From a virus (lineage: Duplodnaviria > Heunggongvirae > Uroviricota > Caudoviricetes), in the IMG/VR virus record IMGVR_UViG_2563366799_000006: a DNA stretch of 49,446 nt. One strand, written 5' to 3'. Position numbers and translations under genes: made by a program. Below are positions 32,418 to 48,888 of the stretch, piece after piece. The notes under the pieces were generated by a model that saw nothing but the letters and a program-made list of their open reading frames with translations, was not told where the DNA came from and ran no database searches. Every line of letters begins with the position of its first letter. The first letter of the stretch is position 1.

Positions 32418-33350
32418 ATGACATTCGCAATCCCTAACGGCTCGCGTGTTAACGTGGCCAAGGCCTATCAGGCTCCCATCACCTTTACCGCTGCCTCTAA
32501 CGCTACTGAATGCGAACTGACTGTTGCATCTGCCGCTGGCATCCTGGCGGGCGACGTAGTGCAGGTGAGCTCCGGCTGGCTAAAACTCGATAATATGGTG
32601 CTGCGCGTTAAATCCGTAGCCGGTACCAAAATCGTGCTGGATTCGTTCGATACCTCTGACACCACCAAATTCCCGGCAGGCACTGGCGCGGGCACGCTGC
32701 GTAAAATCGACACGTGGATCACGATGCCGCAGGTGATGACCCTCTCCACAGAGGGTGGTGACCAGCAGACCATCAGCGTGCAGTTCCTTGAAGACGATAA
32801 GGCCCGTACCATCCCGACCTTCAAAAACGCCGTGGTGCAGGTCTACACCTTCGCGCACGATCCGCTGCTGGCAATTTACAAGCGTCTGAGTGAACTTGAC
32901 GAATCCAGCGACACCACTGCTGTGTGGTTCCATAACCCGCGCGGCAAAGCGGACCGTTATTACTCTGCCAAAGTGTCTTTCCAGAAGGTGCCTAAGACCG
33001 AAATCAACGCCGTGGAAAGCAACGAAGCGCGCATGAACTTCGAATCGGATATGCAGATTTACCCGATCGCCGATTCATCCGTTACGCCGCTGGCGTTCCT
33101 GACTGATCTGCCATCAACCAAAGCAGTTAGTGTTGGAGATGCGCTCGATTTAGCCGTCGTTATGCAAGGCGGCTCAGCCCCTTACACCTACGTGTGGAAG
33201 AAAGGAAGCTCCGCAATTCCGGGCAAAACCGCCTCGACGTTCAACATTCCATCTGTGGCATCCGGTGATGCTGGCTCTTACACCTGCGAAGTCACTGACG
33301 CGGCGGGCAAAACTATCACCTCTGCTGCTTGCACCGTCACGGTCAGCTAA
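32418..33350 (+). CDS. Major tail protein with C-terminal Ig-like domain
   Basis: 310 aa; C-terminal Ig-like motif GSYTCEVTDAAGKTITSAACTVTVS; precedes the G/GT chaperone genes. Confidence 0.7.
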   Translation: MTFAIPNGSRVNVAKAYQAPITFTAASNATECELTVASAAGILAGDVVQVSSGWLKLDNMVLRVKSVAGTKIVLDSFDTSDTTKFPAGTGAGTLRKIDTWITMPQVMTLSTEGGDQQTISVQFLEDDKARTIPTFKNAVVQVYTFAHDPLLAIYKRLSELDESSDTTAVWFHNPRGKADRYYSAKVSFQKVPKTEINAVESNEARMNFESDMQIYPIADSSVTPLAFLTDLPSTKAVSVGDALDLAVVMQGGSAPYTYVWKKGSSAIPGKTASTFNIPSVASGDAGSYTCEVTDAAGKTITSAACTVTVS

Positions 33351-33415: not shown

Positions 33416-33754
33416 ATGACCAAATTTTCCCTGATCCCCAACCCAACTTTTTCTGTGACCGCGAGCATTCCGCGCGCTGGCGCCGAAGACGGCAAGCTGA
33501 CGTTCACTTTCCGCCATAAGACGCTGGGAGAGCTGCGCTCCATGGACGAGAAGCTGCAAAAGGCCGCCGAAGGTAAAAAGGATGCTATCGAGCCACAGGC
33601 CGACTACCTCATGGAAATTGTCGAGGGGTGGGCGCTTCCCGATGAGTTCAACCGCGAAAACGTTATTGTCCTTCTGCGGAACTATCCACGCGCGTTCGAC
33701 AGCATCGGTCTGGCATACACCAAAGAGCTGATGGGTATCCGCGAAAAAAACTGA
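33416..33754 (+). CDS. Tail assembly chaperone G
   Basis: ATG at 33416 (ORF track extends to 33329); ends with the slippery site A_AAA_AAC just before its stop. Confidence 0.7.
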   Translation: MTKFSLIPNPTFSVTASIPRAGAEDGKLTFTFRHKTLGELRSMDEKLQKAAEGKKDAIEPQADYLMEIVEGWALPDEFNRENVIVLLRNYPRAFDSIGLAYTKELMGIREKN

Positions 33755-34059
33755 GGCAGGTCGCCGCAGCATTGTATACGCCGGGACCGACGCTCGCGGA
33801 GCTGAGCGCTTTTGGTTTGACGCCTGAGGACGTGGAGGAAGAGGTGGGGATCCTGCCCTCGGTGTGGAGGTCCTTCACCATCTTCTCTTCCCTGGCGACC
33901 CAGTGGCGAGTCGGCGCGAGCGGGGCGACCGGCCTTGATTACAACGTTCTCCCCTGGATGTTCGAGTTACACGGGGTTGAGGATGCGGCGGCCTGCATGG
34001 CTGACCTTCAAATTATGGAAAGCGAGGCTCTCAAGGTAATGCATAAGGAGACGAAATAA
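33748..34059 (+). CDS. Tail assembly chaperone GT extension (T part, reached by -1 frameshift from G)
   Basis: The -1 frame is open from the slippery heptamer at 33745-33751 to the TAA at 34057-34059; no independent ATG or RBS. Confidence 0.6.
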   Translation, partial: KLRQVAAALYTPGPTLAELSAFGLTPEDVEEEVGILPSVWRSFTIFSSLATQWRVGASGATGLDYNVLPWMFELHGVEDAAACMADLQIMESEALKVMHKETK

Positions 34060-37000
34060 TGACAGACCAGATCGCCTCGATTACTTTGCGGGCCGATGTT
34101 TCTGACCTGAAAACAGCCAGCAACGAACTGGATAAACTCGGCCAGGCGGCGGCCGGTGCTGTAGATAAAGCGGATGATTTAAATAGCGTGTTCCGCGCTG
34201 GGGCTGAATCTGCGAAGCAAGGCAGCGAAGGACTCAAGGAGCAGCAGAACGCGCTCAAAGGGCTGCTGGAGAATATCGACCCGGTTACCAAGGCCTTAAA
34301 CCGCCTGGATGAGCAGCAAGAATCGCTGCGGAAATTCCAGGCCAAAGGTTTCCTGGATACCGATACCTTTCAGGCATACAACAAAATCCTGGATGACACC
34401 CGCCTCAAGCTGACCGACACCGGAGAAGCCGCGGCGCGTGCTCAGGCCGAATTAGCCGCTACCCAGGCGGCAGAGAAGCAGTCCGCAGCGTTAAAGAACC
34501 TTCTTGGATCCATCGACCCGACTATCCGCGCGTTCAATTCGTTGGATGAACAGCACGCACAGCTGGTGGAACATTTCGAAGCTGGGCGCATTAACGGTGC
34601 TCAGTTCGAGCACTTCAACACAATCCTTAACCAGACGCGTGAGCGCCTCTCTGGTGTCGCTGACGTACTACCAGAGGCGCTATCCCGGCAGGAAGCTGCT
34701 GCCCGGCGCGCTGGAATCTCCGTTGGTCAGTACAGCGCAGCAATGCGCACGCTTCCGGCGCAATTCACCGATATCGCCACGCAGCTGGCTGGCGGTCAGT
34801 CGCCGTTCCTGATTCTGCTGCAACAGGGCGGGCAGATTAAAGACCAGTTCGGCTCGGTTCAGGGGGCGCTGTCCGGCGTCGGCGAATACATCCGCAGCAT
34901 GGCTGGGATGATTAACCCTACCACAATCGCACTTGGTGGGCTGATTGGCACGATCGGCCTGCTGGCTGCCGCAGCGTATAACTCCTCGGAGCAATTTGAG
35001 CAGGTGGCACGCTCTGTCATCATGATGGGTGGGGCTGGCTTCTCCTCAATGCAGCAGCTCAACCAGGCCGCTGAGGAAGTGGCTGGCAAGACGAATACAT
35101 CGATTAGCTCCACCGTCGATACGCTGGTTACGTTGAACGATACTGGCAAATATACCGCAAGCCAGATGAAGCAGGTCGCAACGACCATCACCCTCATGGG
35201 TAAGGCCGGAAATGATACCAAAGCGGCAATAAGCGACTTCGGAAAGATTGTCAGCGATCCGGTTAAAGGGCTTGCCAGCCTCAATGAACAATATGGTTTC
35301 GTTGATGAAGCCATGATCAAGCACATTATCCAGCTACGTAAGCAGAAGGGTGAGCAGGCGGCTGTTACCGAAGCTATTGAGCTGTTTGCAGGCGTCATGG
35401 CAAAGCGCGCAGAGGAGACCAACAAAGCGACCGATAATATCGGTCAAACGTGGGAAAACCTTAAAAAGAGCGCTTCTGACACCTTTGGCGATATAGGTAT
35501 TACCGTGCGCGCATGGGGAAACCAGATCATTGATATTTTCGAACTGGTTAAATCCTCGATCAAAGACTTGTTCCTCAATATCACCTCTCTGGACGCCAAG
35601 TTCACCAGCACCATCGCTGGCTGGGCAGACAAAATCCCGGGTGGCGGTGCGCTGGCTAATTTCCTCGGCATGGACGTTGAGGCAATGAAAAAGGCTGGAG
35701 CGGAGGCGGACAAAGAGATTGAGGCGAACAAAAAACGCTATAACGAGCTTTGGAAGCGCGTCACTGCGCCTAACGCACAGGCAAACTATGAGGCTGAAGC
35801 GCGAGGGTCTAACGTAAAAGGTGATGGAGGAACAAGTCGAGAATCAAGAGACGCAGTCTCGAAGCTTGCACAAGACTCAGCCAAAAAGACCAAAGAGGCA
35901 AAAGCCACGCTGGATGCTGGCGATCGCACTCTTGAGAACTACCGCGCCCAGGCCAGAACGTTAACTGAAACACTCGAAACGTTGCGCAAGACTGGGGAGA
36001 CTCAGGTCAGATATACCGAGTTCAGCAAACAGCAATCCCATTTTGCCGAGCTGGACGAGGCTGCTAAGACCCGCGCGCTGACCGCACAGGAGAAATCTCT
36101 TCTATCGAACCGAGAGGCCATCCTCAACGCCGCCAAAGTTGTGGATCAGAAAAATAAGGAAGTCGAGGCCCAGCAGAAGATTAACGGCCTGGCGCAGCAG
36201 GCAAATAAGTATGTTACGCAGATGACTGAAAAGTCTGAGGCATTGCGTAGCGGGGCTGGGTTAAGTAGTCGCATGGCCCAGCGAATGACCGAAGAGGCGC
36301 AGCTTCGGCAGGGCTGGCTAAATGGCGGTGGTAATCTAGAGGATGCTGGCTACGAGAAAGAGCTGGCAGCTCTTCGTAACTACTACGCCGAAGAGGATAA
36401 GCTACGGGGTGACTGGAAAGCAGGGGCAGTTAGTGGCTGGAATGAATATCTTGAGGCCGCCACGAATACCTATGACGCCGTGAAGAACGTCGCCAGCTCC
36501 ACGCTGACCGGCTTGAGCGACATGCTGACTGAGCTGATGATCACTGGCAAAGCATCAGTTAAAGAATTCGGTAAATCCATGCTCAAGATGATCCTGGATG
36601 TTACGAACCGCCTCATGGTTGCCTACGCAGTGCAGGCCGCAATGGGATGGGTAAACGGAGGGGCAGGAGGTGGCAACACACCCGGTGGAGCATACGCGAA
36701 CGCTGCTGCAGGCGTAACGTTCAACGCTAAAGGCGGAGTCTATGAATCGCCGGGCCTAAGCAAGTATGTGAATGGCGTCTACGATTCTCCTCAGTACTTC
36801 ACGTTCCAGGGGGCATCTAAGTTTGCGAAAGGGGGGGTCTTTGGAGAGGCAGGGCCGGAAGCTATTATGCCGTTAGCTAAAGATTCAGCAGGGCGGTTGG
36901 GTGTACGCGCCCAAGGAGGTGGAAGTATTGCTCCTGTAATTAATACCGTCATTAATGTTGAGGCTAATGGTAATGTATCAACCAGCACATCGTCGGATGG

Positions 37001-37112
37001 TGATGCAATGGCGCGTGCTTTAGCCAAGCAGATCAATGATCAGGCAAAAATGATAGTGCTCAATGAGCTTAAGCCTTCTGGCGCTATCTACAACTACATT
37101 AACAAGCGATAA
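34059..37112 (+). CDS. Tail tape measure protein
   Basis: 1017 aa; helical/coiled-coil N-terminal two-thirds, Gly-rich C-terminal region; start overlaps the T stop (TAATG). Confidence 0.9.
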   Translation: MTDQIASITLRADVSDLKTASNELDKLGQAAAGAVDKADDLNSVFRAGAESAKQGSEGLKEQQNALKGLLENIDPVTKALNRLDEQQESLRKFQAKGFLDTDTFQAYNKILDDTRLKLTDTGEAAARAQAELAATQAAEKQSAALKNLLGSIDPTIRAFNSLDEQHAQLVEHFEAGRINGAQFEHFNTILNQTRERLSGVADVLPEALSRQEAAARRAGISVGQYSAAMRTLPAQFTDIATQLAGGQSPFLILLQQGGQIKDQFGSVQGALSGVGEYIRSMAGMINPTTIALGGLIGTIGLLAAAAYNSSEQFEQVARSVIMMGGAGFSSMQQLNQAAEEVAGKTNTSISSTVDTLVTLNDTGKYTASQMKQVATTITLMGKAGNDTKAAISDFGKIVSDPVKGLASLNEQYGFVDEAMIKHIIQLRKQKGEQAAVTEAIELFAGVMAKRAEETNKATDNIGQTWENLKKSASDTFGDIGITVRAWGNQIIDIFELVKSSIKDLFLNITSLDAKFTSTIAGWADKIPGGGALANFLGMDVEAMKKAGAEADKEIEANKKRYNELWKRVTAPNAQANYEAEARGSNVKGDGGTSRESRDAVSKLAQDSAKKTKEAKATLDAGDRTLENYRAQARTLTETLETLRKTGETQVRYTEFSKQQSHFAELDEAAKTRALTAQEKSLLSNREAILNAAKVVDQKNKEVEAQQKINGLAQQANKYVTQMTEKSEALRSGAGLSSRMAQRMTEEAQLRQGWLNGGGNLEDAGYEKELAALRNYYAEEDKLRGDWKAGAVSGWNEYLEAATNTYDAVKNVASSTLTGLSDMLTELMITGKASVKEFGKSMLKMILDVTNRLMVAYAVQAAMGWVNGGAGGGNTPGGAYANAAAGVTFNAKGGVYESPGLSKYVNGVYDSPQYFTFQGASKFAKGGVFGEAGPEAIMPLAKDSAGRLGVRAQGGGSIAPVINTVINVEANGNVSTSTSSDGDAMARALAKQINDQAKMIVLNELKPSGAIYNYINKR

Positions 37113-37125
37113 TTGAGAGGTTTTA

Positions 37126-37338
37126 ATGGACTTAAAAGTTGACGGCATCAATGTTTATGATGATGAGGAAGGAAAGATTGTTTCAGTAACCGTGCATGTA
37201 ATGAGGGATGAATATCGAAGTCATGCAACGACATACGTTGAGCTCCCGTATTCTGATGCGCTGACAATCCATGAAATTCACACGCAGGCGCTCAATGCCG
37301 CCAAAGAGAAACTTAAGCTGATCGCAAGCAGCATCTGA
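37126..37338 (+). CDS. Hypothetical small protein
   Basis: 70 aa; GAGAGG RBS. Confidence 0.45.
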   Translation: MDLKVDGINVYDDEEGKIVSVTVHVMRDEYRSHATTYVELPYSDALTIHEIHTQALNAAKEKLKLIASSI

Positions 37339-37393
37339 TCGTTACATTCTGACATCCCCTGGTTAATATGTAAAAAACCATATTGTTCAGGGG

Positions 37394-37822
37394 ATGATAA
37401 TGAAATTACTCTTCATTAGCGTTGTTGCGTTGTGTTTGGCCGGTTGTGCTACTGAAGCCGTTTTACCAAGCCAGGCGAAACAAGCACCCAAAGAACGATT
37501 GCTCAAGTTCCAGTCGCCAGGTGTAGGGGAACAGGCGAAGCTAATTGTGGTGCGCGATAAAGGATTTCTTGGAAGCGGTTGTTTCGTCGGCGTGTACCTA
37601 AACCAAGAGAAGGCAGCTATTTTGGATCCAGGTGAGAAGGCCGAATTTTACCTCAAACCGGGAGAATGGAATGTTGCTTTAATGGGGGAAGGAAAGATGT
37701 GCATCGCTGACAAGATACCTGCTGGAAGAGACTTTGTGCTCACTGCGAACACTACAAAAGCCGTCCGTTTATTTGCAGATCCGAGCGGAAACACTGACGT
37801 CAAAACACTGCCGAACCAATAG
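37394..37822 (+). CDS. Lipoprotein (cargo gene between tape measure and M)
   Basis: 142 aa; signal peptide with lipobox LAGC; terminator downstream. Confidence 0.65.
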   Translation: MIMKLLFISVVALCLAGCATEAVLPSQAKQAPKERLLKFQSPGVGEQAKLIVVRDKGFLGSGCFVGVYLNQEKAAILDPGEKAEFYLKPGEWNVALMGEGKMCIADKIPAGRDFVLTANTTKAVRLFADPSGNTDVKTLPNQ

Positions 37823-37842
37823 CCCCCAATACCTAATAACCA

Positions 37843-37870
37843 GCCTCGTATCCGCGGGGCTTTTTGTTGT
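37843..37870 (+). terminator. Intrinsic terminator (AGCCTCG...CGGGGCT family)
   Basis: AGCCTCG-tatccg-CGGGGCT followed by TTTTTGTTGTTG. Confidence 0.5.
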
Positions 37871-38283
37871 TGCAGGTGGGCGGGGTGGTTAAAAAGTGAG
37901 CACCACATTCAAGGGGGCCGAAATATTACAGCAATCTTTGTTGTCGTGCATTCCAACCAAGTCATGTATTTTGTGCAAAAAGTGCTATTTATGGCCTTCT
38001 TGAACTCTTCAACCGGATCATAGGCCCAGCCTATCTCCTGAGAACGTGACAATAGTTTACTATTACCTGAGGGGTAACTTCTGCGAAAGTGTGGCTAACT
38101 TGCAAAGTGGCCGCGATAAAATTCGTCGAACATGCATCTATCTTCAGACATAGGCCCATTGCTCAAATATGACGAATGGTATTAAATTGTCCTCAACCAC
38201 TTGAAGTGGTCATTAATTCTTTGGATGTGTTTACATCCTACAATTTGAGAAAGCACTGCCAAACGTGCATGAGGGTGATAATC

Positions 38284-38463
38284 ATGGGTCACGCATTAAA
38301 AAAGGCAGATCGCTTGTACATTCCGCCTCGTGACAAATCCACGGTGGCGAAACCTCGTGCAGCGATCAGCGAAGCATGTTCACACACTGGTCAAGTTAAA
38401 AATGCCTTTGAGTTTGGGTTTGCTCGTTATGAGAAGGCGATGGAAGAACTTTCAAAGGTCTGA
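38284..38463 (+). CDS. Putative antitoxin partner of the Doc-family toxin (family not recognised)
   Basis: ATG at 38284 with GAGGG RBS (ORF track extends to 38176); 59 aa; 10 bp upstream of the Doc gene; perfect palindrome ACCACTT-G-AAGTGGT at 38206-38220 upstream. Confidence 0.45.
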   Translation: MGHALKKADRLYIPPRDKSTVAKPRAAISEACSHTGQVKNAFEFGFARYEKAMEELSKV

Positions 38464-38473
38464 GTAGAAACGG

Positions 38474-38971
38474 ATGACGATAGAGTATGTTGAAGGAGTC
38501 AATTATCTTTCCATTGACGATATCGTTTACATCAATAGGTCTCTGATCGAGACTCAGACGCCAAATGAGCCAATAGGCGTACTGAATCCGAACAACCTCA
38601 GTTCTTCACAGTCCAGACCAAGTACGATTCGATATTATGAGCAGACAGACGATATGTTTCGCCTGTCTGCTGTTCTTATTGAAAGCCTGATCCAGAATCA
38701 TCCATTCGCAAATGCAAACAAACGCACCGCTATGATGGCTGGATACGTATTCCTGTTGCTGAATGGATATGAGCTTACAGCACCCAGTGATGAGGTCGTA
38801 ACCATCGCAGAGGGTTTGGCTCGTAAGGATTACTCAGTGGAAGACCTGGAAAATTGGTTATGCCACTGGTCCCGAGAGTACGATTCCAGAACGTTATGTG
38901 CAACAGGCGGAAATTCGCTTCAGGCTCTCGTGGCGACTTCACACTACATCCGAATCATATCGAATAACTGA
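38474..38971 (+). CDS. Doc (death-on-curing)/Fic-family toxin
   Basis: 165 aa; motif HPFANANKRTA (compare P1 Doc H.F.DANKRTA). Confidence 0.75.
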   Translation: MTIEYVEGVNYLSIDDIVYINRSLIETQTPNEPIGVLNPNNLSSSQSRPSTIRYYEQTDDMFRLSAVLIESLIQNHPFANANKRTAMMAGYVFLLLNGYELTAPSDEVVTIAEGLARKDYSVEDLENWLCHWSREYDSRTLCATGGNSLQALVATSHYIRIISNN

Positions 38972-38972
38972 A

Positions 38973-38993
38973 TCCGCTAAGAGGCGGTTTTTT
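38973..38993 (+). terminator. Intrinsic terminator after the Doc gene
   Basis: Short stem CCGCT/GGCGG followed by seven T. Confidence 0.5.
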
Positions 38994-39015
38994 TGCCGAC
39001 CAATACTGAATTATA

Positions 39016-39038
39016 TAACCCGCTTCGGCGGGTTTTTT
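39016..39038 (+). terminator. Intrinsic terminator (second of a tandem pair)
   Basis: AACCCGC-ttcg-GCGGGTT followed by TTTTTT. Confidence 0.65.
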
Positions 39039-39050
39039 TATGGAGCAAAT

Positions 39051-39401
39051 ATGGCCGTTGAAACATACAACTGGCGATCTCAGCTCGGGGCTGGCGCGAT
39101 TGAATATAGTCAAACGGTGCGTGCTGCGCAGTTTGGCGATGGCTACGAACAGGTGGCCGAGAACGGCATCAACTCCACGGCGATCCAGGTGCCAATGAAA
39201 CACGTTGGCAGTGAGTCTGAGGTAAACGCAGTGCGCGACTTCCTCCTGGCTCATACCGTTAAAGCTTTTATCATCACGCCGCCCGGCGAAGCGAAGGGGC
39301 TTTATCGGGTAGTCGCCGATTCCGTACGGAAAAATCAGATCAGCAGCAAGTTTGCTGAGCTGACGTTCACCATCAAACGGGCTTACGGAGTGTATGCATA
39401 A
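39051..39401 (+). CDS. M: Minor tail protein M
   Basis: ATG at 39051 with GGAG RBS (ORF track extends to 38898); FGDGY motif shared with lambda M; gene order M-L-K-I-J. Confidence 0.7.
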   Translation: MAVETYNWRSQLGAGAIEYSQTVRAAQFGDGYEQVAENGINSTAIQVPMKHVGSESEVNAVRDFLLAHTVKAFIITPPGEAKGLYRVVADSVRKNQISSKFAELTFTIKRAYGVYA

Positions 39402-40171
39402 TGGCATTAGTCGATCAGGCGGCGATGCTGGCACCGGGTGGCAGAGTTCGCCTGGTTGAAGTTGACGCCTCAGAGTTCAGTGGCGGTATTCACCGTTTCC
39501 ACTACGCACCTTTCCCCCATACACCGGAAGAGATCGACGCTGCCAATGGTGATGAAGAAAAGCTCGGACCAAAGCCAATCGTATTCGGTGGCAATACCTA
39601 CGATTTTTGGCCGTTTCAGGTAGCAGGCCTGGAGCTTTCAACAGACCAGGCCGCAGAGCCGACACTCAGCGTTTCCAACCTCGACGGTCATATCACGGCG
39701 CTATGCCTGCAATTTAAAGACATGGTTAATGCCAAAGTGAGCATTATCGACACCTATTCGGTTTACCTCGATGCCGTGAATTACCCTGGTGGGGTGAACC
39801 CGACCGCAGACCCGTCGATGTTCACGCTTCAGACCTTCTGGCTTGACACGAAAACCTCCGAAGACGACGAAGTGGTTTCATGGTCACTCAGTAGCCCCGC
39901 AGACTTGCAGGGGCTTGTTATCCCAACCAGACAAATCACCTCGCTCTGTGAATGGGCGCTACGCGGGCAGTACCGGAGCGGCGATGGATGCACCTATAAC
40001 GGTACGGCATATTTCGACGCGAAGGGGAACCAGGTTTCAGATCCTGCCCTTGATGTATGTGGTGGATGCTTCAGTGACTGCCGTAAACGATTTGGCGCCG
40101 GCCTGGCAGATCCTAACGCGGCAATTCTCGACTTTGGCGGCTTTCCGGCAACCGTTCTCTTCACCCGATAA
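39401..40171 (+). CDS. L: Minor tail protein L
   Basis: 256 aa; motifs PTLSVSNL, YLDAVN, C-terminal Cys cluster, DFGGF, as in lambda L. Confidence 0.85.
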   Translation: MALVDQAAMLAPGGRVRLVEVDASEFSGGIHRFHYAPFPHTPEEIDAANGDEEKLGPKPIVFGGNTYDFWPFQVAGLELSTDQAAEPTLSVSNLDGHITALCLQFKDMVNAKVSIIDTYSVYLDAVNYPGGVNPTADPSMFTLQTFWLDTKTSEDDEVVSWSLSSPADLQGLVIPTRQITSLCEWALRGQYRSGDGCTYNGTAYFDAKGNQVSDPALDVCGGCFSDCRKRFGAGLADPNAAILDFGGFPATVLFTR

Positions 40172-40183
40172 CCGGACATAGCA

Positions 40184-40915
40184 ATGAATAAAACCATATT
40201 GGCAGCTATCCGTGCTCATGCGCTGGAGGAATCCCCGCGCGAGAGCTGCGGATTCGTTATTCAGTCTGGCCGTCGCCAGCGCTATATTCCTGTACCAAAC
40301 ACTCACGAAAATCCAACAGAGCATTTCCGCATCGATGGCGAGCATTGGGCGAACGCCGAAGATATCGGGACGATTGTGCGCGTCATCCATTCCCATCCTG
40401 GCGATGGAGCAAGGCCGATTCCATCCGATCTGGACCGCCAGCAATGCAACAACTCCGGCGTGGTCTGGGGTATTTACGCGCCGGATAGCGACGAATACGC
40501 TGAGATAATGCCGGAGGCGGTACCCCTTATCGGGCGTCCGTTTATTCTGGGCTCAAATGACTGCTGGGGGCTGGTAATGGATTGGCATGCCACCCAAGGC
40601 GTGAAGCTGAACGATTTTCGCGTCGATTACCCGTGGTGGGAAAGCCAGTACCCGGACAATCTCTATTTCGAAAACTGGGAGCGGGAAGGGTTTGTCGAAT
40701 GCGATCCGGCACCAGGCTGTATGGTCATCATGCAGGTTGAATCCAGTAAGTGGAACCACGCGGGGATCATTACCGAGGAAGGTGAACTGCTTCACCATCT
40801 GTATGGGCAGCCATCCTGCATCACGCCGTATGCGCGTGGTTATTTCAAAGACAGGACGATGATCTGCGTCCGTCACAAGGACCTGCCACAGGAGATAAAG
40901 CCATGGCGCGTTTAA
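40184..40915 (+). CDS. K: Tail assembly protein K (JAMM/MPN + NlpC/P60)
   Basis: 243 aa; HSHPGDGARPIPSDLD JAMM motif; Cys/His peptidase motifs. Confidence 0.85.
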   Translation: MNKTILAAIRAHALEESPRESCGFVIQSGRRQRYIPVPNTHENPTEHFRIDGEHWANAEDIGTIVRVIHSHPGDGARPIPSDLDRQQCNNSGVVWGIYAPDSDEYAEIMPEAVPLIGRPFILGSNDCWGLVMDWHATQGVKLNDFRVDYPWWESQYPDNLYFENWEREGFVECDPAPGCMVIMQVESSKWNHAGIITEEGELLHHLYGQPSCITPYARGYFKDRTMICVRHKDLPQEIKPWRV

Positions 40916-41502
40916 CCACTATTCGTCTGTATGGCGCACTGGGCGCCCGGTTCGGGCGCGTGCATAAACTGGCAGTGCAGACATCTGCCGAAGCGGTCAA
41001 AGCCCTGTGTATCAACTTCGACGGACTGGAAGACTATCTAATGAATGCAAAAAAAAATGGCATGACCTTCGCGGTGTTTCGCGGTAAGCGCAACATAGGC
41101 GTGCAGGACTTCCAGGAGCTGGCAGGCGATAGCGATATTCGCATAGCGCCGGTTATGGAGGGGGCGAAGAAGGCGGGTATGTTCCAGACCATCTTGGGGG
41201 CAGTGATGGTGGTCGCCGGTATTATCGTCGGCGTGGCGACCGGCTGGACCGGTGTAGGTCTCACCTTTGGTGCCGGACTTATCATGTCGGGCGCGTCAAT
41301 GATGGCTGGTGGAATTTACCAGATGCTTTCGCCCCAGCCCAAAGGACTACAGGGGCGAGACGATCCTGACAATAAACCATCATATGCCTTCGGTGGCTCG
41401 GTGAATACCCTTGCGATGGGTAACCCGGTCGCGCTTCTTTATGGTGAGCGCGAGATTGGCGGCGCCATCATCAGTGCCGGCATAGTCGCAGAAGACATCT
41501 AA
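40903..41502 (+). CDS. I: Tail assembly protein I
   Basis: 199 aa; overlaps K; hydrophobic Gly-rich central segment as in lambda I. Confidence 0.8.
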   Translation: MARLTTIRLYGALGARFGRVHKLAVQTSAEAVKALCINFDGLEDYLMNAKKNGMTFAVFRGKRNIGVQDFQELAGDSDIRIAPVMEGAKKAGMFQTILGAVMVVAGIIVGVATGWTGVGLTFGAGLIMSGASMMAGGIYQMLSPQPKGLQGRDDPDNKPSYAFGGSVNTLAMGNPVALLYGEREIGGAIISAGIVAEDI

Positions 41503-41521
41503 AACTCCTTTCTGAATATCA

Positions 41522-41546
41522 AGCACCCAATTGGGTGCTTTTTTTA
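41522..41546 (+). terminator. Hairpin plus T-run between I and J
   Basis: AGCACCC-aatt-GGGTGCT followed by TTTTTTT. Confidence 0.55.
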
Positions 41547-41556
41547 TGGATGTAAT

Positions 41557-44500
41557 ATGGAAGCGATCACTGGTGCAAAGGGTGGCAGCCAGAAGCAGCA
41601 CACACCTGTAGAACAGCCCGATTCGGCTCAGTCAATGGCGCGCTGCCGCATGCTGCTGGCGCTCGGGGAGGGGGAGTTTGCTGGTGGCCTGGATGCGACC
41701 CGGATATTCCTGGACGGTACGCCGTTGGGAAACCCCGACGGAACGATGAATTTTGAAAATGTGTCATGGGATTTCCGGCCTGGCACACAGACCCAGACAC
41801 CAATACCGGGATTCCCTGCAGTCGAGAATGAAACTACGGTTGGGGTATCGCTGACAAAGGCCACACCATGGACCCGCGCACTGAGTAACACCCAGATTGA
41901 CGCGGTGCTGGTTCGTATTGGCATCCCTGGGTTACAGCAGCAGGAAAACGATGGGGATATTGTCGGCACTACGGTTCAGTACCATATTGATCTGGCGGTG
42001 GACGGTGGCGCTTACTCGACAGTCATGACGAAAACCGTCACAGAGAAGCTCAGCTCGCTCTATGAACTAACCCACCGTATTAATCTTCCCAAAGCCAGCA
42101 CTGGCTGGCAAATTCGAGTGGTGCGTGACACCGATGACAGCACCAGCCAGATGCTGCAGAACAAAACGCAGGTGCAAGCGATTACTGAAGTGATCGATGC
42201 TCGCCTGCGATATCCACACACAGCGCTGCTGTACGTGTCCTTTAACGCAAAGTCATTCAACAACATCCCTAAGATTTCCTGCATGCCGAAGGGGCGCATC
42301 ATCCGAATCCCTTCGAACTATGATCCAATAGCGCGGACTTATAGCGGAACATGGGACGGGACGTTTAAATGGGGCTGGACGAATAACCCGGCGTGGATTT
42401 GGTTCGATGTTCTGACTGAGCCGCGCTTCGGCCTTGGGCGCCGCGTGACGCCAGAAATGCTCGATAAGTGGGAGCTCTATCGCATCGCCCAGCGCTGCGA
42501 CCAGAAGGTACCCGACGGGAAAGGCGGAAGCGGTACCGAGCCACGCTTCATGTTTGACGTTTACATCCAGTCCCAGGCTGATGCCTGGCAGGTGATTAAA
42601 GATATTGCCGCGGGCTTCAACGGAATGACTTTCTGGGGCAACAACATGTTCAATGTTGTCTCTGACATGCCGGCGGACACTACGAAGTTGCAGATCCTCA
42701 CTCGCGCATCAGTGGTGGGTAAGCCGGTGTACTCGAGTGGCAGTGAGAAAAACCGATTCTCCAGCGCGCTGATTAACTTCAGCGATCCGGATAACCACTA
42801 CCAGGACCGCACCACGGCAGTGATGTTTCCGGAACTGGTAAGGCAGTTCAAGTTTAAGCAGACACAAATCACTGCGATCGGTTGTACGCGTGAGAGCGAG
42901 GCGCAGCGGCGTGGCGGGTGGGCGGTGTATTCCAACTCCCTTGACCGCATTATCACGCTTCAGACTGGACTTGATGGCTTTGTATTCGTGCCGGGCACCG
43001 TATTTGCGTTTGCAGATGAACGCCTGTCAGGGCGCGTTTACGGCGGGCGTATCACCGGGTATAACGCTGGTCTTAAGGCCGTGACCATTGACCGGGGCAC
43101 CAGTGCGGTGGCGGGCGATACGCTGATGATTCGCACCCAGGGCGGTACCGTTGAAAGCCGGGTGATACAGGCCGTAAATGGCACGCAGCTGATCCTGTCC
43201 ACGCCGTTCACGGCGGCGCCATTACCTAATGCCGTATTCGTCATTGATGCTGGTCAGCTGCGCCTGCAGTATTTCCGGGTAACGAACCTAAAATTTGATG
43301 ATGAGGAAAACACCTTCACCATTACCGGTGCGGAGTATAACGCGTCGAAATACGACGCCGTTGATAACAATGCTCGCCTCGATACTCCTCCGATAAGCCT
43401 GATTCCGACCGGGCTAGTTAACCAGCCGACCAACATCGTGGTATCGAGCTATGATGCGGTTCGCCAGGGGCAACGCGTGGCCACGCTAACCGCCTCGTGG
43501 GATGCGCCAATTGATAAAGACGGCAAACTGCAGTCGGACGTAATAGCGTACCGGGCACAGTGGAAGCGCGGAAATAACGAATGGGTAAACGTGCCTGAAA
43601 CCGGGTTACGAAATATCGAAGTGCCTGGCATTTTCGAGGGCGATTACCTTGTGCGCGTCCGTGCGATTAACTCTGGGGGAGCGTCCAGCCTTTGGGCCAC
43701 GTCTGCGTTGACCCATCTTACCGGCCGCACCGGTGAAGTGCCCAAACCTGTCGGACTAACAGCAACAGAGGATGTTGTATTTGGGATCAACATTACATGG
43801 GGTTTCCCCGCAGATACCGCCGACACCCTGAGCACGGAACTGCAATACAGCGCTTCAGTCGATGGGGCAAATCCAATGCTTTTGGCGTCGGTGCCGTATC
43901 CTCAGAAACTCTATCAGCAGATGGGGCTGAAGGCAGGGCAGGAATTCTGGTACCGGGCACGGCTGGTTGACCGCATCGGGAATCAGAGCGACTGGACAGA
44001 CTGGGTGCGCGGGCAGGCCAGCATCGATGTTTCCGATATCACCGATGCAATCCTGGAGGACATGAAAGGCTCCGATACGTTCAAAGACCTGATCGAGAAC
44101 GCGGTGGACAGCAATGAAAAAATTGCTGGCATGGCTGACGAAATTAAAAACCATGCCGACGAACTCGAGCAGCAGGCGAAAGACATCCTGGAGAACGCTG
44201 ACGGGCTGGCTCAGGCCGAAGTGAAGATCGACGAGATTTCTGTGTCGATGGACGGCATGACGGGAGGAGTGAAGAACTCGGCAATCGCGATTATTCAGAA
44301 TGGGCTGGCGCAGGTGGTAAGCCGTCGCTCGCAGACCGCCACGAACGCCGGGAACAGTGCCAGTATAGACAGAGTGGATACTACGATTGCCGATACCAGC
44401 CAGGCGGTCGCACGCGCGCTGGTCACACTGGATGCAGAAGCTGGTGGCAATATCTCTAACTCAACGGACCTGACAGAAACTCTTGCTGATTTCACCCAGG

Positions 44501-45036
44501 CTTCGGCAACAAAAATCAACACTCTGACTGTTAAATCAGGCGAAAACAGTGCAGCGATAAACGTCAACGCACAGGCTATAGCAGATGTAAACGGTAACCT
44601 CAGCGCGATGTATAACATCAAGGTGGGGGTGTCCAGTAACGGGCAGTATTACGCTGCCGGGATGGGTATTGGGGTTCAAAATACACCCTCCGGCATGCAG
44701 TCACAGGTAATCTTCCTGGCAGACCGTTTCGCCGTGACTACTATGGTCGGCGGGACTGTAACACTGCCGTTCGTTATCCAGAATGGCCAGGCCATTATCA
44801 GGGATACAGTCATTGGCGACGGGACCATAAGCAATGCAAAAATTGGCAATTACATCCAGTCGAACAATTATGTTGCCGGCTCTGTTGGCTGGAAACTGGA
44901 TAAGTCCGGGACGTTTGAGAACTACGGTTCGACAGCTGGGGAGGGAGCCATGAAGCAGACCAACCAGACAATCAGCGTCAAGGATGGCAACAACGTTCTG
45001 AGAGTGCAGGTTGGCCGATTAACGGGGGTGTTCTGA
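41557..45036 (+). CDS. J: Host specificity protein J (central tail fibre/tip)
   Basis: 1159 aa; follows I; size and position. Confidence 0.9.
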   Translation: MEAITGAKGGSQKQHTPVEQPDSAQSMARCRMLLALGEGEFAGGLDATRIFLDGTPLGNPDGTMNFENVSWDFRPGTQTQTPIPGFPAVENETTVGVSLTKATPWTRALSNTQIDAVLVRIGIPGLQQQENDGDIVGTTVQYHIDLAVDGGAYSTVMTKTVTEKLSSLYELTHRINLPKASTGWQIRVVRDTDDSTSQMLQNKTQVQAITEVIDARLRYPHTALLYVSFNAKSFNNIPKISCMPKGRIIRIPSNYDPIARTYSGTWDGTFKWGWTNNPAWIWFDVLTEPRFGLGRRVTPEMLDKWELYRIAQRCDQKVPDGKGGSGTEPRFMFDVYIQSQADAWQVIKDIAAGFNGMTFWGNNMFNVVSDMPADTTKLQILTRASVVGKPVYSSGSEKNRFSSALINFSDPDNHYQDRTTAVMFPELVRQFKFKQTQITAIGCTRESEAQRRGGWAVYSNSLDRIITLQTGLDGFVFVPGTVFAFADERLSGRVYGGRITGYNAGLKAVTIDRGTSAVAGDTLMIRTQGGTVESRVIQAVNGTQLILSTPFTAAPLPNAVFVIDAGQLRLQYFRVTNLKFDDEENTFTITGAEYNASKYDAVDNNARLDTPPISLIPTGLVNQPTNIVVSSYDAVRQGQRVATLTASWDAPIDKDGKLQSDVIAYRAQWKRGNNEWVNVPETGLRNIEVPGIFEGDYLVRVRAINSGGASSLWATSALTHLTGRTGEVPKPVGLTATEDVVFGINITWGFPADTADTLSTELQYSASVDGANPMLLASVPYPQKLYQQMGLKAGQEFWYRARLVDRIGNQSDWTDWVRGQASIDVSDITDAILEDMKGSDTFKDLIENAVDSNEKIAGMADEIKNHADELEQQAKDILENADGLAQAEVKIDEISVSMDGMTGGVKNSAIAIIQNGLAQVVSRRSQTATNAGNSASIDRVDTTIADTSQAVARALVTLDAEAGGNISNSTDLTETLADFTQASATKINTLTVKSGENSAAINVNAQAIADVNGNLSAMYNIKVGVSSNGQYYAAGMGIGVQNTPSGMQSQVIFLADRFAVTTMVGGTVTLPFVIQNGQAIIRDTVIGDGTISNAKIGNYIQSNNYVAGSVGWKLDKSGTFENYGSTAGEGAMKQTNQTISVKDGNNVLRVQVGRLTGVF

Positions 45037-45037
45037 T

Positions 45038-45340
45038 ATGGCTTATGGAATACAGACCTGGGATGCTTCGGGAAACCCCAACAACTACGGAATCAAGCCC
45101 GTTTCCGTTGTTGGACGTATACAACTTGCCGCCGGACAAAACTCCGGCAGCTGGTCTTTCACTGTACCCTCAGGAATGAAGGTCGGTTTTGCGCTCTCAC
45201 TTGATGAAGGAGGTAACAGCGTAGGGAGGAGCATTGTCGCGTCAGGGAACACAATAACCGTAACCGCAGCCTCTTCTGTGGGCCTGGGTAATTACCCGGC
45301 CTCTAAATGTGAGGTGGTCGTTTTCATGGAGAAAGCATAA
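45038..45340 (+). CDS. Hypothetical tail-associated protein (WDASG motif)
   Basis: 100 aa; start 2 bp after the J stop. Confidence 0.5.
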   Translation: MAYGIQTWDASGNPNNYGIKPVSVVGRIQLAAGQNSGSWSFTVPSGMKVGFALSLDEGGNSVGRSIVASGNTITVTAASSVGLGNYPASKCEVVVFMEKA

Positions 45341-46014
45341 TGGCCGAATTTGGCGCGATGATATTAATGGATAACGGGAATCCCTTTGTAACGCCACAAT
45401 CAACGCCTTTCTGTCTTTACGGGAAGTATACCTTCAATTCATCCGCGAATGGCAGTTCTCAGCAGGTTGCTCAAAATATCGCTTTAAACGCTGATTACCC
45501 AGTGATGGTTTTTATCAAAACCACCAATACAGCACAGCCCACTCCGGTTATGTCTTACAGGAACGGCGGTAATGTGTATGTTGCTGGTGTTAATCCCTAC
45601 AACCAAAGTTTCACTTTAACGGCGTACGTTTTTGCCATATTCCCGCAGATATTACCGAAATGGGGTTTGGCAATATGGGATGCGAGCGGAAAGCTTGTGT
45701 TAACTAATGAGTCCCGTGTGCTATCAGACCTGCAGACGGTTGGCACGCCTGGTGCAAACGGCGGGATAAATATTGACCAGACGCTGAGCGGGTCATGGGC
45801 CGTTGCACCTGCTCAGTTGGGTCAGACCATCATTGTGAATAATTCAACCCAGCCTCCGACTATCTACACGATAAATGCTTATTCTTCATGCAGGTTTGAC
45901 GGGGCCAATACGAGGATAAACGCAGGGGGGACCTCCACTGGGGCAGGTTCACCTGGAGGGGGAACGAATACTGGCATTTCATTAACCGCCATAAATACAG
46001 CGGCCTATGATTGA
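45340..46014 (+). CDS. Hypothetical tail-associated protein (WDASG motif, paralogous segment to the previous gene)
   Basis: 224 aa; start overlaps the previous stop. Confidence 0.5.
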   Translation: MAEFGAMILMDNGNPFVTPQSTPFCLYGKYTFNSSANGSSQQVAQNIALNADYPVMVFIKTTNTAQPTPVMSYRNGGNVYVAGVNPYNQSFTLTAYVFAIFPQILPKWGLAIWDASGKLVLTNESRVLSDLQTVGTPGANGGINIDQTLSGSWAVAPAQLGQTIIVNNSTQPPTIYTINAYSSCRFDGANTRINAGGTSTGAGSPGGGTNTGISLTAINTAAYD

Positions 46015-46403: not shown

Positions 46404-46419
46404 ATTGCCTGGAGAAAAT

Positions 46420-47685
46420 ATGCTTTATAACACCGGCACCATCGCCATTAATGGAAATACCGCCACCGGGACGGGTACAAACTGGACGGCACCGGCCAGC
46501 CAGGTCCGCGCTGGCCAGACGATCATCGTCATGTCTAACCCGGTGCAGATGTTCCAGATTTCATCTGTGAACAGCGCCACGTCAATGACGGTTACGCCTG
46601 CTGCTTCCCCGGCGCTGAGCGGCCAGAAGTATGGAATCCTGGTGTCCGATAACATCTCTGTCGACGGACTGGCGCAGGCGATGTCGCAGCTCATCAAAGA
46701 GTATGACGAGAACATTGGCGCGTGGGAGACATTCGCCACTACCTCAGCAAACCAGACCATCACCGTTACCATCAACGGAACCTCCGTTAATATTCCAAGT
46801 ATTGGCGCGCTTGCCAGAAAGGGGTCCAACAACGATATCACCGAGCTGAAAGGGCTCACAACTGCGCTTTCTGTTGCACAGGGCGGGACTGGGGCAAAGA
46901 CCGAAGCTGACGCTCGCACAAACCTCGGTTTAGGAGACAGCGCCACAAGGAACGTCGGAACGGCGGCCGGAACCGTGGCAGCTGGCGACGATTCACGGCT
47001 TGGAAGCGTTAACGGTAAAACGGGGGGGACGATTTCATCTGCTGTGACGATCAACGGTGTTGGTGGCGGAGCAACTGACTGGCATACAAATGCCGGCGGT
47101 GGTTTAGGGGTCAGAAAGGGAAGTGGCGGTGATAACTCCATTGAGATGAATAATACGACAAATGATTCATCTCAGGGCAATTATGTAAACCAGATAGTTG
47201 GTAAGTGGTATAGCGGTTCATGGGCGCTAGGTGCAATACGGAGCGGCTCGACTCCACTTGATCGTGTTCAGTTAAATGTGATAGCGGAATCTGGTGGGGC
47301 AGCCGCATCGTTTATGTTTTACCCTGATGGTCGTGGCACTGGTGGTCAATGGGTATCGCTCTCAGATGCGCGTATAAAAAAAGACATCGCGCGCATATCC
47401 GATCCTCTCATAAAGATGAAAGCCATTAAAGGCTGCTTTTGGGAGCGTATAGACAATGAAACTACGGGTTACGGCTTTATTGCACAGGACGTTGAGCAAG
47501 TATTTCCCGAAGCTGTTAAAGGTGGCTATGATATTACTCTGGAGGACGGAACAGTTATTCCTGATGTGAAAACTGTCGATACTTACGGGGTTGCTGCAGC
47601 TTTGCACCATGAGGCAATTCTGGCCCTAATGGTTAGGGTCGATAATTTGACGAGTAAGGTGGAAAAACTGGAACAAGGAAGCTGA
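46420..47685 (+). CDS. Side tail fibre with C-terminal S74-type intramolecular chaperone domain; C-terminal part lies in an invertible segment
   Basis: ATG at 46420 with GGAG RBS (ORF track 46405 uses TTG); C-terminus ...SDARIKKDI...GFIAQDVEQVFPEAV; crossover site inside the gene at 46913-46938. Confidence 0.8.
   Translation: MLYNTGTIAINGNTATGTGTNWTAPASQVRAGQTIIVMSNPVQMFQISSVNSATSMTVTPAASPALSGQKYGILVSDNISVDGLAQAMSQLIKEYDENIGAWETFATTSANQTITVTINGTSVNIPSIGALARKGSNNDITELKGLTTALSVAQGGTGAKTEADARTNLGLGDSATRNVGTAAGTVAAGDDSRLGSVNGKTGGTISSAVTINGVGGGATDWHTNAGGGLGVRKGSGGDNSIEMNNTTNDSSQGNYVNQIVGKWYSGSWALGAIRSGSTPLDRVQLNVIAESGGAAASFMFYPDGRGTGGQWVSLSDARIKKDIARISDPLIKMKAIKGCFWERIDNETTGYGFIAQDVEQVFPEAVKGGYDITLEDGTVIPDVKTVDTYGVAAALHHEAILALMVRVDNLTSKVEKLEQGS
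46913..46938 (+). other. gix/hix-like inversion crossover site (left)
   Basis: CTCGCACAAACC-TC-GGTTTAGGAGAC, imperfect 12-2-12 dyad with AAACC..GGTTT core. Confidence 0.55.
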
Positions 47686-47692
47686 ATAATTT

Positions 47693-47721
47693 GCAGCCCG
47701 TAATTTGCCGGAACGGGCTGC
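47693..47721. terminator. Hairpin between the convergent fibre cassettes (possible bidirectional terminator)
   Basis: GCAGCCCG-13 nt-CGGGCTGC; AT-rich flank on the minus-strand side. Confidence 0.35.
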
Positions 47722-47738
47722 AGTTGAATGCTCAGGAT

Positions 47739-48818
47739 TCATGATGCCGCTATTTTTAGCTTAAGCTCCTGGAGCTCTTTCTGTGTTGTCTCCAGCTGTT
47801 TAATGACGTAGTTCAATGCCAGCACGGTATCAAGCATGATGACGTTGTTATCCAGTGCCAACGTATCATCAGCATCAACCCTGTTTCCTTCACTATCAAA
47901 CTTTGGCGCAGCAGGGACCAGCTTTACGTACTCACTATCAATCTTCATGACGTCCTGAGCGATTACACCTCGGCGAACTCTCTCACGAGGGTCATCGTTG
48001 TAGACGTAAGTTGCTGGCAGGAATTTCCTGATATTCTCGTATGACTGATAACCATCATCATATTTAATATCGTGCTTCAGCGTAATGTCACAGTTAGGCT
48101 GCTTCTGGAAAATATAGTTCCCGGAAAGATTCCCACCAGCGTTGGCATATATATCACCGTTTGCTGTCGTGAATTGAAATATACGCTGACCGGCAGAGCC
48201 ACCATCCCCAAGTGTTGTTATTGCCACATCCGCCCACGGACTAGGCCCGGTAGCTATAGAACCAAGCCCTACCGTTGAAGAATATCCGCCACTGCATTGA
48301 CTATGCCAGCGGGCAAAGGGAATGAAACCAGCATCATTATTAACTGCAACATTACCCCTAAAAAAAGATATATTTCTTTGCCATGTATTAATGTCTGACC
48401 AGGAGCCACCATATCCAGCTCCATTTGCTCCACACGAAGATGATTTGAATCTCTCATCAGGGTAAAATAAAAATGAACCCGCCGTACCAGTTCCGCTATT
48501 TACATTTAACTGCGCTCTGTCTAAATTAGTCCCACTCCCCCGAACGCCGCCAAGAGACCAGTTCCCATTATACCAAGCTCCTCCCACAGCGTTTACATAA
48601 CTTCCGACAGTCCCATCCCCTGTAATGTTGTATAGCTTAACAGCCTTATCACCACCTTCCTGCGTGGATACTCCAATACTATTTCCCTGAGTTACCATCA
48701 AACTGCCGGTAACATTTCCCCCTGTTTTTTTATCGACAGTATTCAACCGCGAATCATCCCCGGCTGCCACGGTTCCGGCCGCCGTTCCGACGTCCTTCGT
48801 CGCGCTACTTCCTAAACC
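47739..48818 (-). CDS. Alternative tail-fibre C-terminal cassette (promoterless; expressed only after inversion)
   Basis: Minus-strand frame open from the right crossover site to the stop at 47739-47741; begins SATKDVGTAAGTVAAGDDSRL, parallel to the + fibre; own C-terminal chaperone-type domain (RGVIAQDVMKIDSEYV); ORF track 47739..48770 uses an internal GTG. Confidence 0.65.
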   Translation of the reverse strand, partial: GLGSSATKDVGTAAGTVAAGDDSRLNTVDKKTGGNVTGSLMVTQGNSIGVSTQEGGDKAVKLYNITGDGTVGSYVNAVGGAWYNGNWSLGGVRGSGTNLDRAQLNVNSGTGTAGSFLFYPDERFKSSSCGANGAGYGGSWSDINTWQRNISFFRGNVAVNNDAGFIPFARWHSQCSGGYSSTVGLGSIATGPSPWADVAITTLGDGGSAGQRIFQFTTANGDIYANAGGNLSGNYIFQKQPNCDITLKHDIKYDDGYQSYENIRKFLPATYVYNDDPRERVRRGVIAQDVMKIDSEYVKLVPAAPKFDSEGNRVDADDTLALDNNVIMLDTVLALNYVIKQLETTQKELQELKLKIAAS

Positions 48819-48832
48819 GACGTTTTATAGAT
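48807..48832 (-). other. gix/hix-like inversion crossover site (right, inverted)
   Basis: Reverse complement reads ATCTATAAAACG-TC-GGTTTAGGAAGT; right half matches the left site 10/12, same central TC. Confidence 0.55.
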
Positions 48833-48888
48833 TGCTCTCGAGCGGCCTGGCCGATAACTTCACCTGATTTTTTTGCAGAAATAACTGG

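Follow-up and report, generated by a model that had tools for sequence, protein, structure and literature searches.

Between the tape measure gene H and the minor tail gene M, a lambdoid Enterobacter prophage with an HK639-type tail carries a mobile accessory cassette, in which a gene for a 140-amino-acid lipoprotein of family PHROG 890 stands between a hairpin covering its ribosome-binding site (RBS) and an intrinsic terminator. The cassette is found in IMG/VR virus record IMGVR_UViG_2563366799_000006, a stretch of 49,446 nucleotides (nt) that was analysed whole and is called the window here; the lipoprotein gene lies on the plus strand at 37400-37822. We favour, tentatively and with somewhat less than even confidence, a role of its product in superinfection exclusion, which would act in the periplasm, after adsorption and independently of the receptor. 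That the gene is real and under selection is observed, and we infer the localisation of the product, its exclusion function, the step that would be blocked and the timing of expression. The subject matters because the range of phages to which a lysogen is open depends in part on small envelope proteins from prophage tail operons; this bears on how prophages compete with one another and on phage therapy directed at Enterobacter, Klebsiella and E. coli.

The lipoprotein gene and its cassette

An earlier note on this DNA had described a lipoprotein gene with lipobox LAGC between the tape measure gene and M, 142 amino acids long and set within 37126-37870. The gene, its lipobox and its place between these two neighbours stand, but not the start and extent: position 37126 begins a separate open reading frame (ORF) of 70 amino acids, orf70 (PHROG 2891), which the note did not mention. 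The length of 142 amino acids is that of the ORF read from the first ATG (37394-37822, plus strand; N-terminus MIMKLLFISVVALCLAGC). However, the Shine-Dalgarno (SD) sequence AGGGGA (37389-37394) touches this first ATG and lies ~5 nt ahead of a second one, and nearly all homologues are 138-140 amino acids long. Since both the SD spacing and the lengths of the homologues fit the second ATG, the true start codon is probably at 37400 (MKLL..., 140 amino acids).

The signal peptide, MKLLFISVVALC-LAGC, has a charged start, a hydrophobic core and a lipobox, and so has the sequence features of a lipoprotein under the pattern that we used ([LVI][ASTVI][GAS]C after a positively charged start and a hydrophobic core). 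The lipobox L-A-G-C is encoded at 37436-37447, with the codon of the Cys that would be lipidated at 37445-37447, and is followed by Ala at position +2. Enterobacterial lipoproteins that lack Asp directly after the lipidated Cys are sorted to the outer membrane; on this rule, the Ala at +2 predicts that the lipoprotein is anchored in the outer membrane, facing the periplasm. Its mature part, of ~124 amino acids, has two conserved Cys residues, and their predicted pairing in a disulphide likewise points to a periplasmic location. An AlphaFold model with a predicted local distance difference test score (pLDDT) of 83 contains an eight-stranded beta-sandwich over residues 48-139, and the mature part is thus predicted to be a disulphide-bonded beta-sandwich in the periplasm. 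A profile search of the sequences in the PDB matched signal peptides only, including that of T5 Llp.

The protein matches the profile of PHROG 890 ('lipoprotein', category 'other') over its full length (E-value 7.8e-41; residues 3-138 against profile positions 1-133 of 136), a profile that the relatives in HK639, SSU5 and Pseudomonas match as well, and it had no match in Pfam, NCBIfam or PADLOC. The family is already catalogued, with members annotated as 'lipoprotein' in HK639 (HK639_16), mEp390 (gp17) and SSU5 (SSU5_122), and the literature that we searched on DUF2846, HK639/mEp390 and phage lipoproteins contained no study of it. The family profile search returned 278 clusters at 90% identity; representatives at 50% identity numbered 1319 (E-value up to 1e-3) or 562 (1e-10), nearly all of them single-domain proteins of about 135-148 amino acids. 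Of 247 relatives of full length, 235 carry the lipobox; among them, the +2 residue is Ala in 182 and Ser in 39 (together 221/235) and is never Asp, and 224 have exactly two further Cys residues. The ratio of non-synonymous to synonymous substitution rates (dN/dS) against close relatives is 0.03-0.14. Taken together, cluster counts, dN/dS and lipobox conservation place the gene far beyond a chance ORF; it is real and under purifying selection.

One public record names an identical protein 'DUF2846' (PF11008). We rejected membership in that family: no match was obtained at E-values up to 10, and the best distant relative scored 22 bits against a cutoff of 34.3. In the literature on DUF2846, a single structural paper mentions the domain, for a protein that the same paper reassigns to another family.

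The gene has its own terminator, as the earlier note had said. It lies at 37842-37871, with a stem of 8 base pairs (37842-37861), 5 of them GC pairs, and then TTTTTGTTGTT, the T run reaching to 37871. Across the 57 non-redundant lambdoid tail clusters from which we drew our cassette counts, a terminator stands 3' of the homologue in 57/57 loci, compared with 3/55 after K and 5/55 after L. The guanine-cytosine (GC) content of the lipoprotein gene in the window is 48%, versus 54-56% in the flanking tail genes; in 53 of 54 loci the homologue is lower in GC than both K and I, with means of 43.6% for the lipoprotein gene, 55.6% for K and 48.3% for I. The I gene is also low in GC relative to K (48% versus 56%, and 0.42 versus 0.64 at third codon positions) in loci that carry the lipoprotein gene between these two, for instance in L004 (6480-7079). 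A terminator follows I in 44/56 loci, so that I is bracketed by terminators when the lipoprotein gene precedes it.

Ahead of the gene, a stable RNA hairpin (37353-37396, plus strand) holds the SD sequence and the first ATG in its 3' arm. Its minimum free energy is -24.6 kcal/mol, with a z score of -4.6 against dinucleotide shuffles; the median hairpin z over 43 unique upstream regions is -1.9. The SD region of the homologues is 78% paired, versus 33-56% where M, L, K, I and J begin in these loci (Mann-Whitney p 2e-13). SD-occluding hairpins thus precede most homologues and differ in sequence between lineages; it is the structure that is conserved, not its sequence. The gap to the upstream ORF is short (median 32 nt). 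Where the gene lies between K and I, the stop codon of K abuts the 5' arm of the hairpin or falls inside it, and in 31 of 44 unique loci the pairing partner of the RBS is located at the upstream stop codon or immediately 3' of it. This layout is that expected for translational coupling, although the short intergenic distance partly forces the proximity to the stop codon, which is therefore not independent evidence. Our promoter scan covered sigma-70 consensus promoters; it found none upstream of the gene in L004, and inspection by eye likewise revealed nothing convincing. Judged from the sequence, the hairpin and the short gap are no less compatible with a gene expressed along with the late operon than with one expressed independently.

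Such an arrangement raises the possibility that the lipoprotein is a late lytic helper, made together with the tail proteins; it could, for example, save newly released virions from debris or from already infected cells or modulate the envelope before lysis. We consider this unlikely. In its favour, the gene and the late tail genes share a strand at all tail loci, the median gap of 32 nt leaves no room for a promoter, and the pairing of the RBS near the upstream stop codon in 31/44 unique loci is as for translational coupling. However, that proximity is partly a product of the short spacing, and it is hard to see what a terminator right behind the gene would do on late transcripts that are antiterminated.

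Genomic positions of the relatives and the proposed exclusion role

The tail genes around the homologues were mapped in 19 genome loci and 55 viral contigs, and in several look-ups. In enterobacterial lambdoid tails the homologue always lies on the tail-gene strand. In the large majority, mEp390 included, it occupies the slot between K and I (K-I slot). The slot between H and M (H-M slot) holds it in this window, in close Enterobacter relatives and in HK639, whose copy shares the position but is only 31% identical to that of the window, and the slot between I and J holds it in L008 and L009. The order K, lipoprotein, I is also found in Pseudomonas prophages, at ~40% identity.

H and M are directly adjacent in the related tails L002, L004, L008 and others, so that the lipoprotein-bearing block of the window is an insertion, in agreement with the extra gene postulated by the earlier note. 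Relatives with the same tail lack the lipoprotein or hold other cargo in the slot (L083, L085), and in HK639-type tails the H-M slot is a cargo hot spot. It carries the lipoprotein alone in L003, the lipoprotein and a YafO toxin module in HK639, other small exported proteins and putative defence-like pairs in L013, and a different lipoprotein with Arc and antirepressor genes in L085. From these variable contents it follows that the lipoprotein gene is accessory and not a part of the tail; presence or absence among syntenic tails and the deviant GC content bear out its earlier description as cargo. A structural or assembly component of the tail could be argued from its position inside the tail-tip cluster and its co-inheritance with K and I. 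We find this highly improbable, since signal peptide and lipobox send the product out of the cytoplasm, the site of tail assembly, and therefore not into virions, and since closely related tails do without the gene.

Cargo sites between H and M occur in several tail lineages (L013 9557-11732, L083 5425-6022, L085 828-3308, L090 5506-6007 and, in mEp021 (L088), 40127-41976), and hold other lipoproteins or secreted proteins, Arc and antirepressor genes like those of P22 immI, and unknown gene pairs.

More distant members of the family lie near the repressor and partition genes of the phage-plasmid SSU5, directly 3' of the Q antiterminator gene in a Rodentibacter prophage, beside the gene of a small outer-membrane beta-barrel in Acinetobacter, and in integrative elements and at apparently chromosomal sites. 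They bear on a second alternative, in which the lipoprotein, like Bor of lambda or TraT of plasmids, would serve host fitness or virulence and alter the outer membrane (serum resistance, adhesion, stress tolerance) in ways unrelated to phages. Apart from these members outside tail modules (SSU5, Rodentibacter, Acinetobacter and the apparently chromosomal sites), this alternative can draw on the Bor-like form of the gene, that of a lambdoid prophage moron for a small lipoprotein of the outer membrane, and on how strongly the mature protein is conserved among tails that use different receptors, which fits a conserved host target. On the other hand, the protein matched no Pfam family and hence not that of Bor, and we rejected membership in the Bor family on this ground; no promoter was found; and the persistent placement at the tail tip and the pairing with Imm-type genes would be unexpected for a pure virulence factor. 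We regard such a role as rather unlikely.

The pairing with Imm-type genes is found in Pseudomonas prophages. In L093, the K-I slot holds an Imm_superinfect gene (PF14373, 56.5 bits against a cutoff of 27.9; PHROG 1039 'immunity to superinfection'). The gene that comes next encodes a PHROG 890 lipoprotein; its start and the stop codon of Imm overlap, and 3' of it stand a terminator and, after that, I. Searching viral contigs with the Imm protein of L093, we found 10 Pseudomonas-type tail loci with an Imm gene in the same slot. The stretch from Imm to I was read in 9 of them, and in each a lipoprotein gene comes directly after Imm: one of PHROG 890 in L109, and one of a different family, PHROG 914, in the other 8. 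In both L093 and L109 the Imm_superinfect match is 56-57 bits and the frames of Imm and PHROG 890 overlap or abut. By guilt by association at two loci, the pairing suggests exclusion at the step of envelope crossing or DNA entry. The Pseudomonas pair of Imm and lipoprotein looks like an undescribed two-component exclusion module; these two-gene cassettes of the K-I slot lie at 4555-5420 in L093 and at about 4001-4860 in L103-L107, L109-L111 and L113, and the Pseudomonas Imm_superinfect membrane protein has a C-terminal zinc ribbon.

The same neighbourhood could be read in another way, with the lipoprotein as a protein that inhibits, or gives immunity to, a cell-wall hydrolase in the periplasm, such as the NlpC/P60 domain of a gpK-type protein, as T4 Spackle acts against the gp5 lysozyme. 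The usual site of the gene is directly after K, whose product has JAB and NlpC/P60 domains, and the Imm-type pairing recalls T4 Imm and Spackle. We nevertheless consider this reading very unlikely. Neither Spackle nor any known hydrolase inhibitor turned up as similar in structure or sequence, the only trace of Spackle being a sub-threshold match to the signal peptide in distant relatives; the gene is not beside K in the window and in HK639-type tails; and gpK, which in lambda is not known to occur in mature tails, may never reach the periplasm of the target cell.

A lipoprotein that blocks the receptor, like Llp, should track the receptor-binding end of J in its sequence. We compared the identity of the mature lipoproteins with that of the last 150 amino acids of J across 35 non-redundant loci with a complete J, using Spearman correlation and the Mantel test. 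The lipoprotein did not co-vary with the C-terminus of J (rho 0.05, Mantel p 0.29), nor did it within the K-I class alone (0.03, p 0.37). In L055 and L058 the lipoproteins are 99% identical and the J ends 16% identical, and in mEp390 and L028 the J ends are 98% identical and the lipoproteins 39% identical. On the strength of this indirect test, we rejected a blocker matched to the receptor of its own phage (Llp/Cor type). Lipoprotein identity did correlate with that of I (rho 0.44-0.60) and of K (0.29-0.41), which suggests that the lipoprotein gene has long been inherited alongside the tail-tip genes. For a late lytic helper these results cut both ways: the co-variation with I and K and the long co-inheritance with tail-tip genes speak for it, but protection from debris or masking of the receptor predicts co-variation with the J end, which is absent.

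In the periplasmic exclusion that we favour, the signal peptide would export the lipoprotein, which would be lipidated at the lipobox Cys, and the Ala at +2 would direct it to the inner face of the outer membrane with the beta-sandwich toward the periplasm. There, it would interfere with envelope crossing or DNA delivery by the tails of incoming siphophages or, alternatively, would act on a conserved host envelope factor that incoming siphophages need; it would not mask the receptor bound by the J protein of its own phage. Indirect support, by analogy, comes from the Imm neighbours, from the linkage to tail-tip genes from Enterobacteriaceae to Pseudomonas, and from the precedents of excluding lipoproteins and of HK97 gp15. 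Steady residence at the tail tip, independence from the J end and occasional pairing with Imm suggest a function tied to the way in which tails cross the envelope.

Several findings weigh against exclusion. The proven receptor-blocking lipoproteins all match the receptor of their own phage, so that exclusion here would have to work differently. Homology to known exclusion proteins was not found: BLASTP of the window protein against mEp021 Lpp aligned the signal peptide only, and the family profile matched T5 Llp (8a60 chain B) at residues 1-18 only, again the signal peptide. Among known anti-phage defence proteins, no PADLOC-DB model matched the window lipoprotein at E-values up to 0.1. Fold searches with its model returned only generic beta-sandwiches, and the fold thus gives no functional clue. 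In the window, the sigma-70 scan upstream of the gene yielded one weak site, inside orf70 and at the rate expected by chance. In addition, the association of PHROG 890 with Imm comprises two loci, both outside Enterobacteriaceae, and, given the distant members at chromosomal and other non-tail sites, the role of the family in the envelope may be a more general one.

The promoter result also touches the suggestion of the earlier note that the gene is a candidate for lysogenic conversion, which would require that the repressed prophage expresses it. That label is unproven, since the search yielded no evident promoter and the signals for translation seem bound up with the late operon.

A broader form of the exclusion hypothesis can be drawn, which we hold to be doubtful. 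PHROG 890 would then be a widespread class of receptor-independent siphophage exclusion proteins at the periplasmic face of the outer membrane, acting on a conserved step of tail-tip penetration and DNA delivery. It would sometimes have an Imm-type inner-membrane partner, in a two-layer block like that of T4 Imm and Spackle, and its synthesis would be gated by the hairpin upon translation of the upstream late gene, so that the protein would be made mainly in lytic growth, unlike the product of a classical lysogenic-conversion gene.

The inserted block and other genes of the window

Upstream of the insertion, the tail genes of the window comprise V (32418-33350), G and T (33416-34059) and H (34059-37112, plus strand). 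The gpH-like tape measure gene, which matches Pfam TMP_2 (1e-52) and Tape_meas_lam_C (2e-19), forms the left edge of the insertion. The insert spans ~1.9 kb (37113-39050) and has a GC content of 41-49%, versus 53-60% in the tail genes. It is composite, and carries a Phd/Doc toxin-antitoxin pair besides the lipoprotein gene. The first gene of the insert, orf70 (37126-37338, plus strand), encodes an acidic protein without a signal peptide that matches PHROG 2891 (1.5e-26). This family is rare, with only 3 clusters in 5.8 billion proteins. In every context found, orf70 begins 13 nt past a tape measure gene, and the gene that comes next differs each time. No match to orf70 was obtained in Pfam, NCBIfam or PADLOC, and a search of a phage collection with it found nothing.

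The stretch after the lipoprotein cassette (37872-38283, ~410 nt) is a separate module, a conserved non-coding sequence without a convincing ORF that leads into the toxin-antitoxin pair. It is 76-87% identical to the matching regions of HK639, L027 and L045, and about 74% identical to that of L029 over 167 nt, and contains invariant blocks of up to 24 nt (e.g., TTTTGTGCAAAAAGTGCTATTTAT) and the palindrome AATAGTTTACTATT. The conserved block, of ~300 nt, has counterparts in L001 (5447-5798), L027 (10432-10913) and L045 (3405-3691) and precedes different toxin-antitoxin genes in different phages; it was not found in Rfam or in an E. coli genome collection, and could act as a common regulatory leader or promoter-operator region. 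A scan of 36900-39200 against Rfam gave two sub-threshold matches only, both at the terminators after doc.

The candidate antitoxin (38284-38463, plus strand), Phd-like by position, is 59 amino acids long; the match to PHROG 2208 (5e-37) begins at residue 37 of a 95-amino-acid ORF, and Pfam gave none. The toxin is a Doc (death-on-curing, Fic-fold) protein (38474-38971, plus strand) with matches to TIGR01550 (1.3e-41), Pfam Fic (2e-12) and PHROG 577 Doc-like toxin (4e-49), and its translation shows the motif HPFANANKRT. Two tandem intrinsic terminators on the plus strand (38974-39044; stems 38974-38987 and 39017-39034, with a T run after each) end the inserted block. Its right edge is M (39051-39401, plus strand), a gpM-like minor tail protein gene (Pfam Phage_min_tail, 1.8e-19), followed by L (39401-40171), K (40184-40915), I (40903-41502) and J (41557-45036).

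Directly after J, the region 45038-46014 holds another two accessory genes of envelope type, for proteins of 100 amino acids (PHROG 557 'outer membrane protein') and 224 amino acids (PHROG 425 'membrane associated protein'), which resemble N15 gp22 and gp23. At the end of the window (46405-49446), DNA inversion probably switches the host range: a tail-fibre gene (46405-47685, plus strand) faces an ORF for a tail-fibre C-terminus (47739-48770, minus strand), flanked by inverted repeats of 79 nt (46920-46998 and 48747-48825) that are 85% complementary. A serine recombinase/invertase gene (48889-49446) adjoins the switch and runs off the end of the window.

Comparison with known systems

Several phage lipoproteins are known to exclude other phages. 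T5 Llp, Cor and the mEpimmI proteins Lpp021 and Lpp010 block the receptor used by their own phage (PMC9586334, PMC11893012), and unrelated lipoproteins from siphophage structural clusters exclude phages when expressed (PMC11893012). Llp, Cor, Lpp021 and Lpp010 resemble the window gene in being phage lipoproteins encoded beside host-recognition or structural genes, but proteins of these types have ~60-80 amino acids, and the window lipoprotein is twice that size. The Lpp of mEp021, for instance, has 72 amino acids and belongs to Pfam PF24052 'Phage lipoprotein family' (107 bits). We rejected membership of the window lipoprotein in the Llp/Lpp021 family, given the lack of a Pfam match and of homology between the mature proteins.

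In T4, the membrane protein Imm has a periplasmic partner, Spackle, which inhibits the gp5 tail lysozyme. We liken the Pseudomonas pair of Imm and PHROG 890 lipoprotein to Imm and Spackle by position only, and the window carries no Imm gene. A precedent from a tail operon is the moron product gp15 of HK97, which blocks DNA entry independently of the receptor (PMC3594210); gp15 is a small inner-membrane protein and has no sequence relation to the window lipoprotein. If exclusion by the lipoprotein is borne out, it would be a new receptor-independent mechanism for lambda-like phages; if not, the gene is one more ordinary moron.

Morons, as defined, include a promoter of their own (PMC3594210). 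Of the hallmarks of a moron described by Juhala and Hendrix, presence or absence among syntenic tails, deviant GC composition and an own terminator are all found at the window gene, together with a product targeted to the envelope. It differs from a classical moron in that no promoter was detected and an RBS-occluding hairpin stands there instead, and the family differs from a recent add-on moron in that its position between K and I has been kept from enterobacteria to Pseudomonas. With these likenesses and differences, the gene belongs to a known kind, the envelope-targeted accessory genes of lambdoid tail operons.

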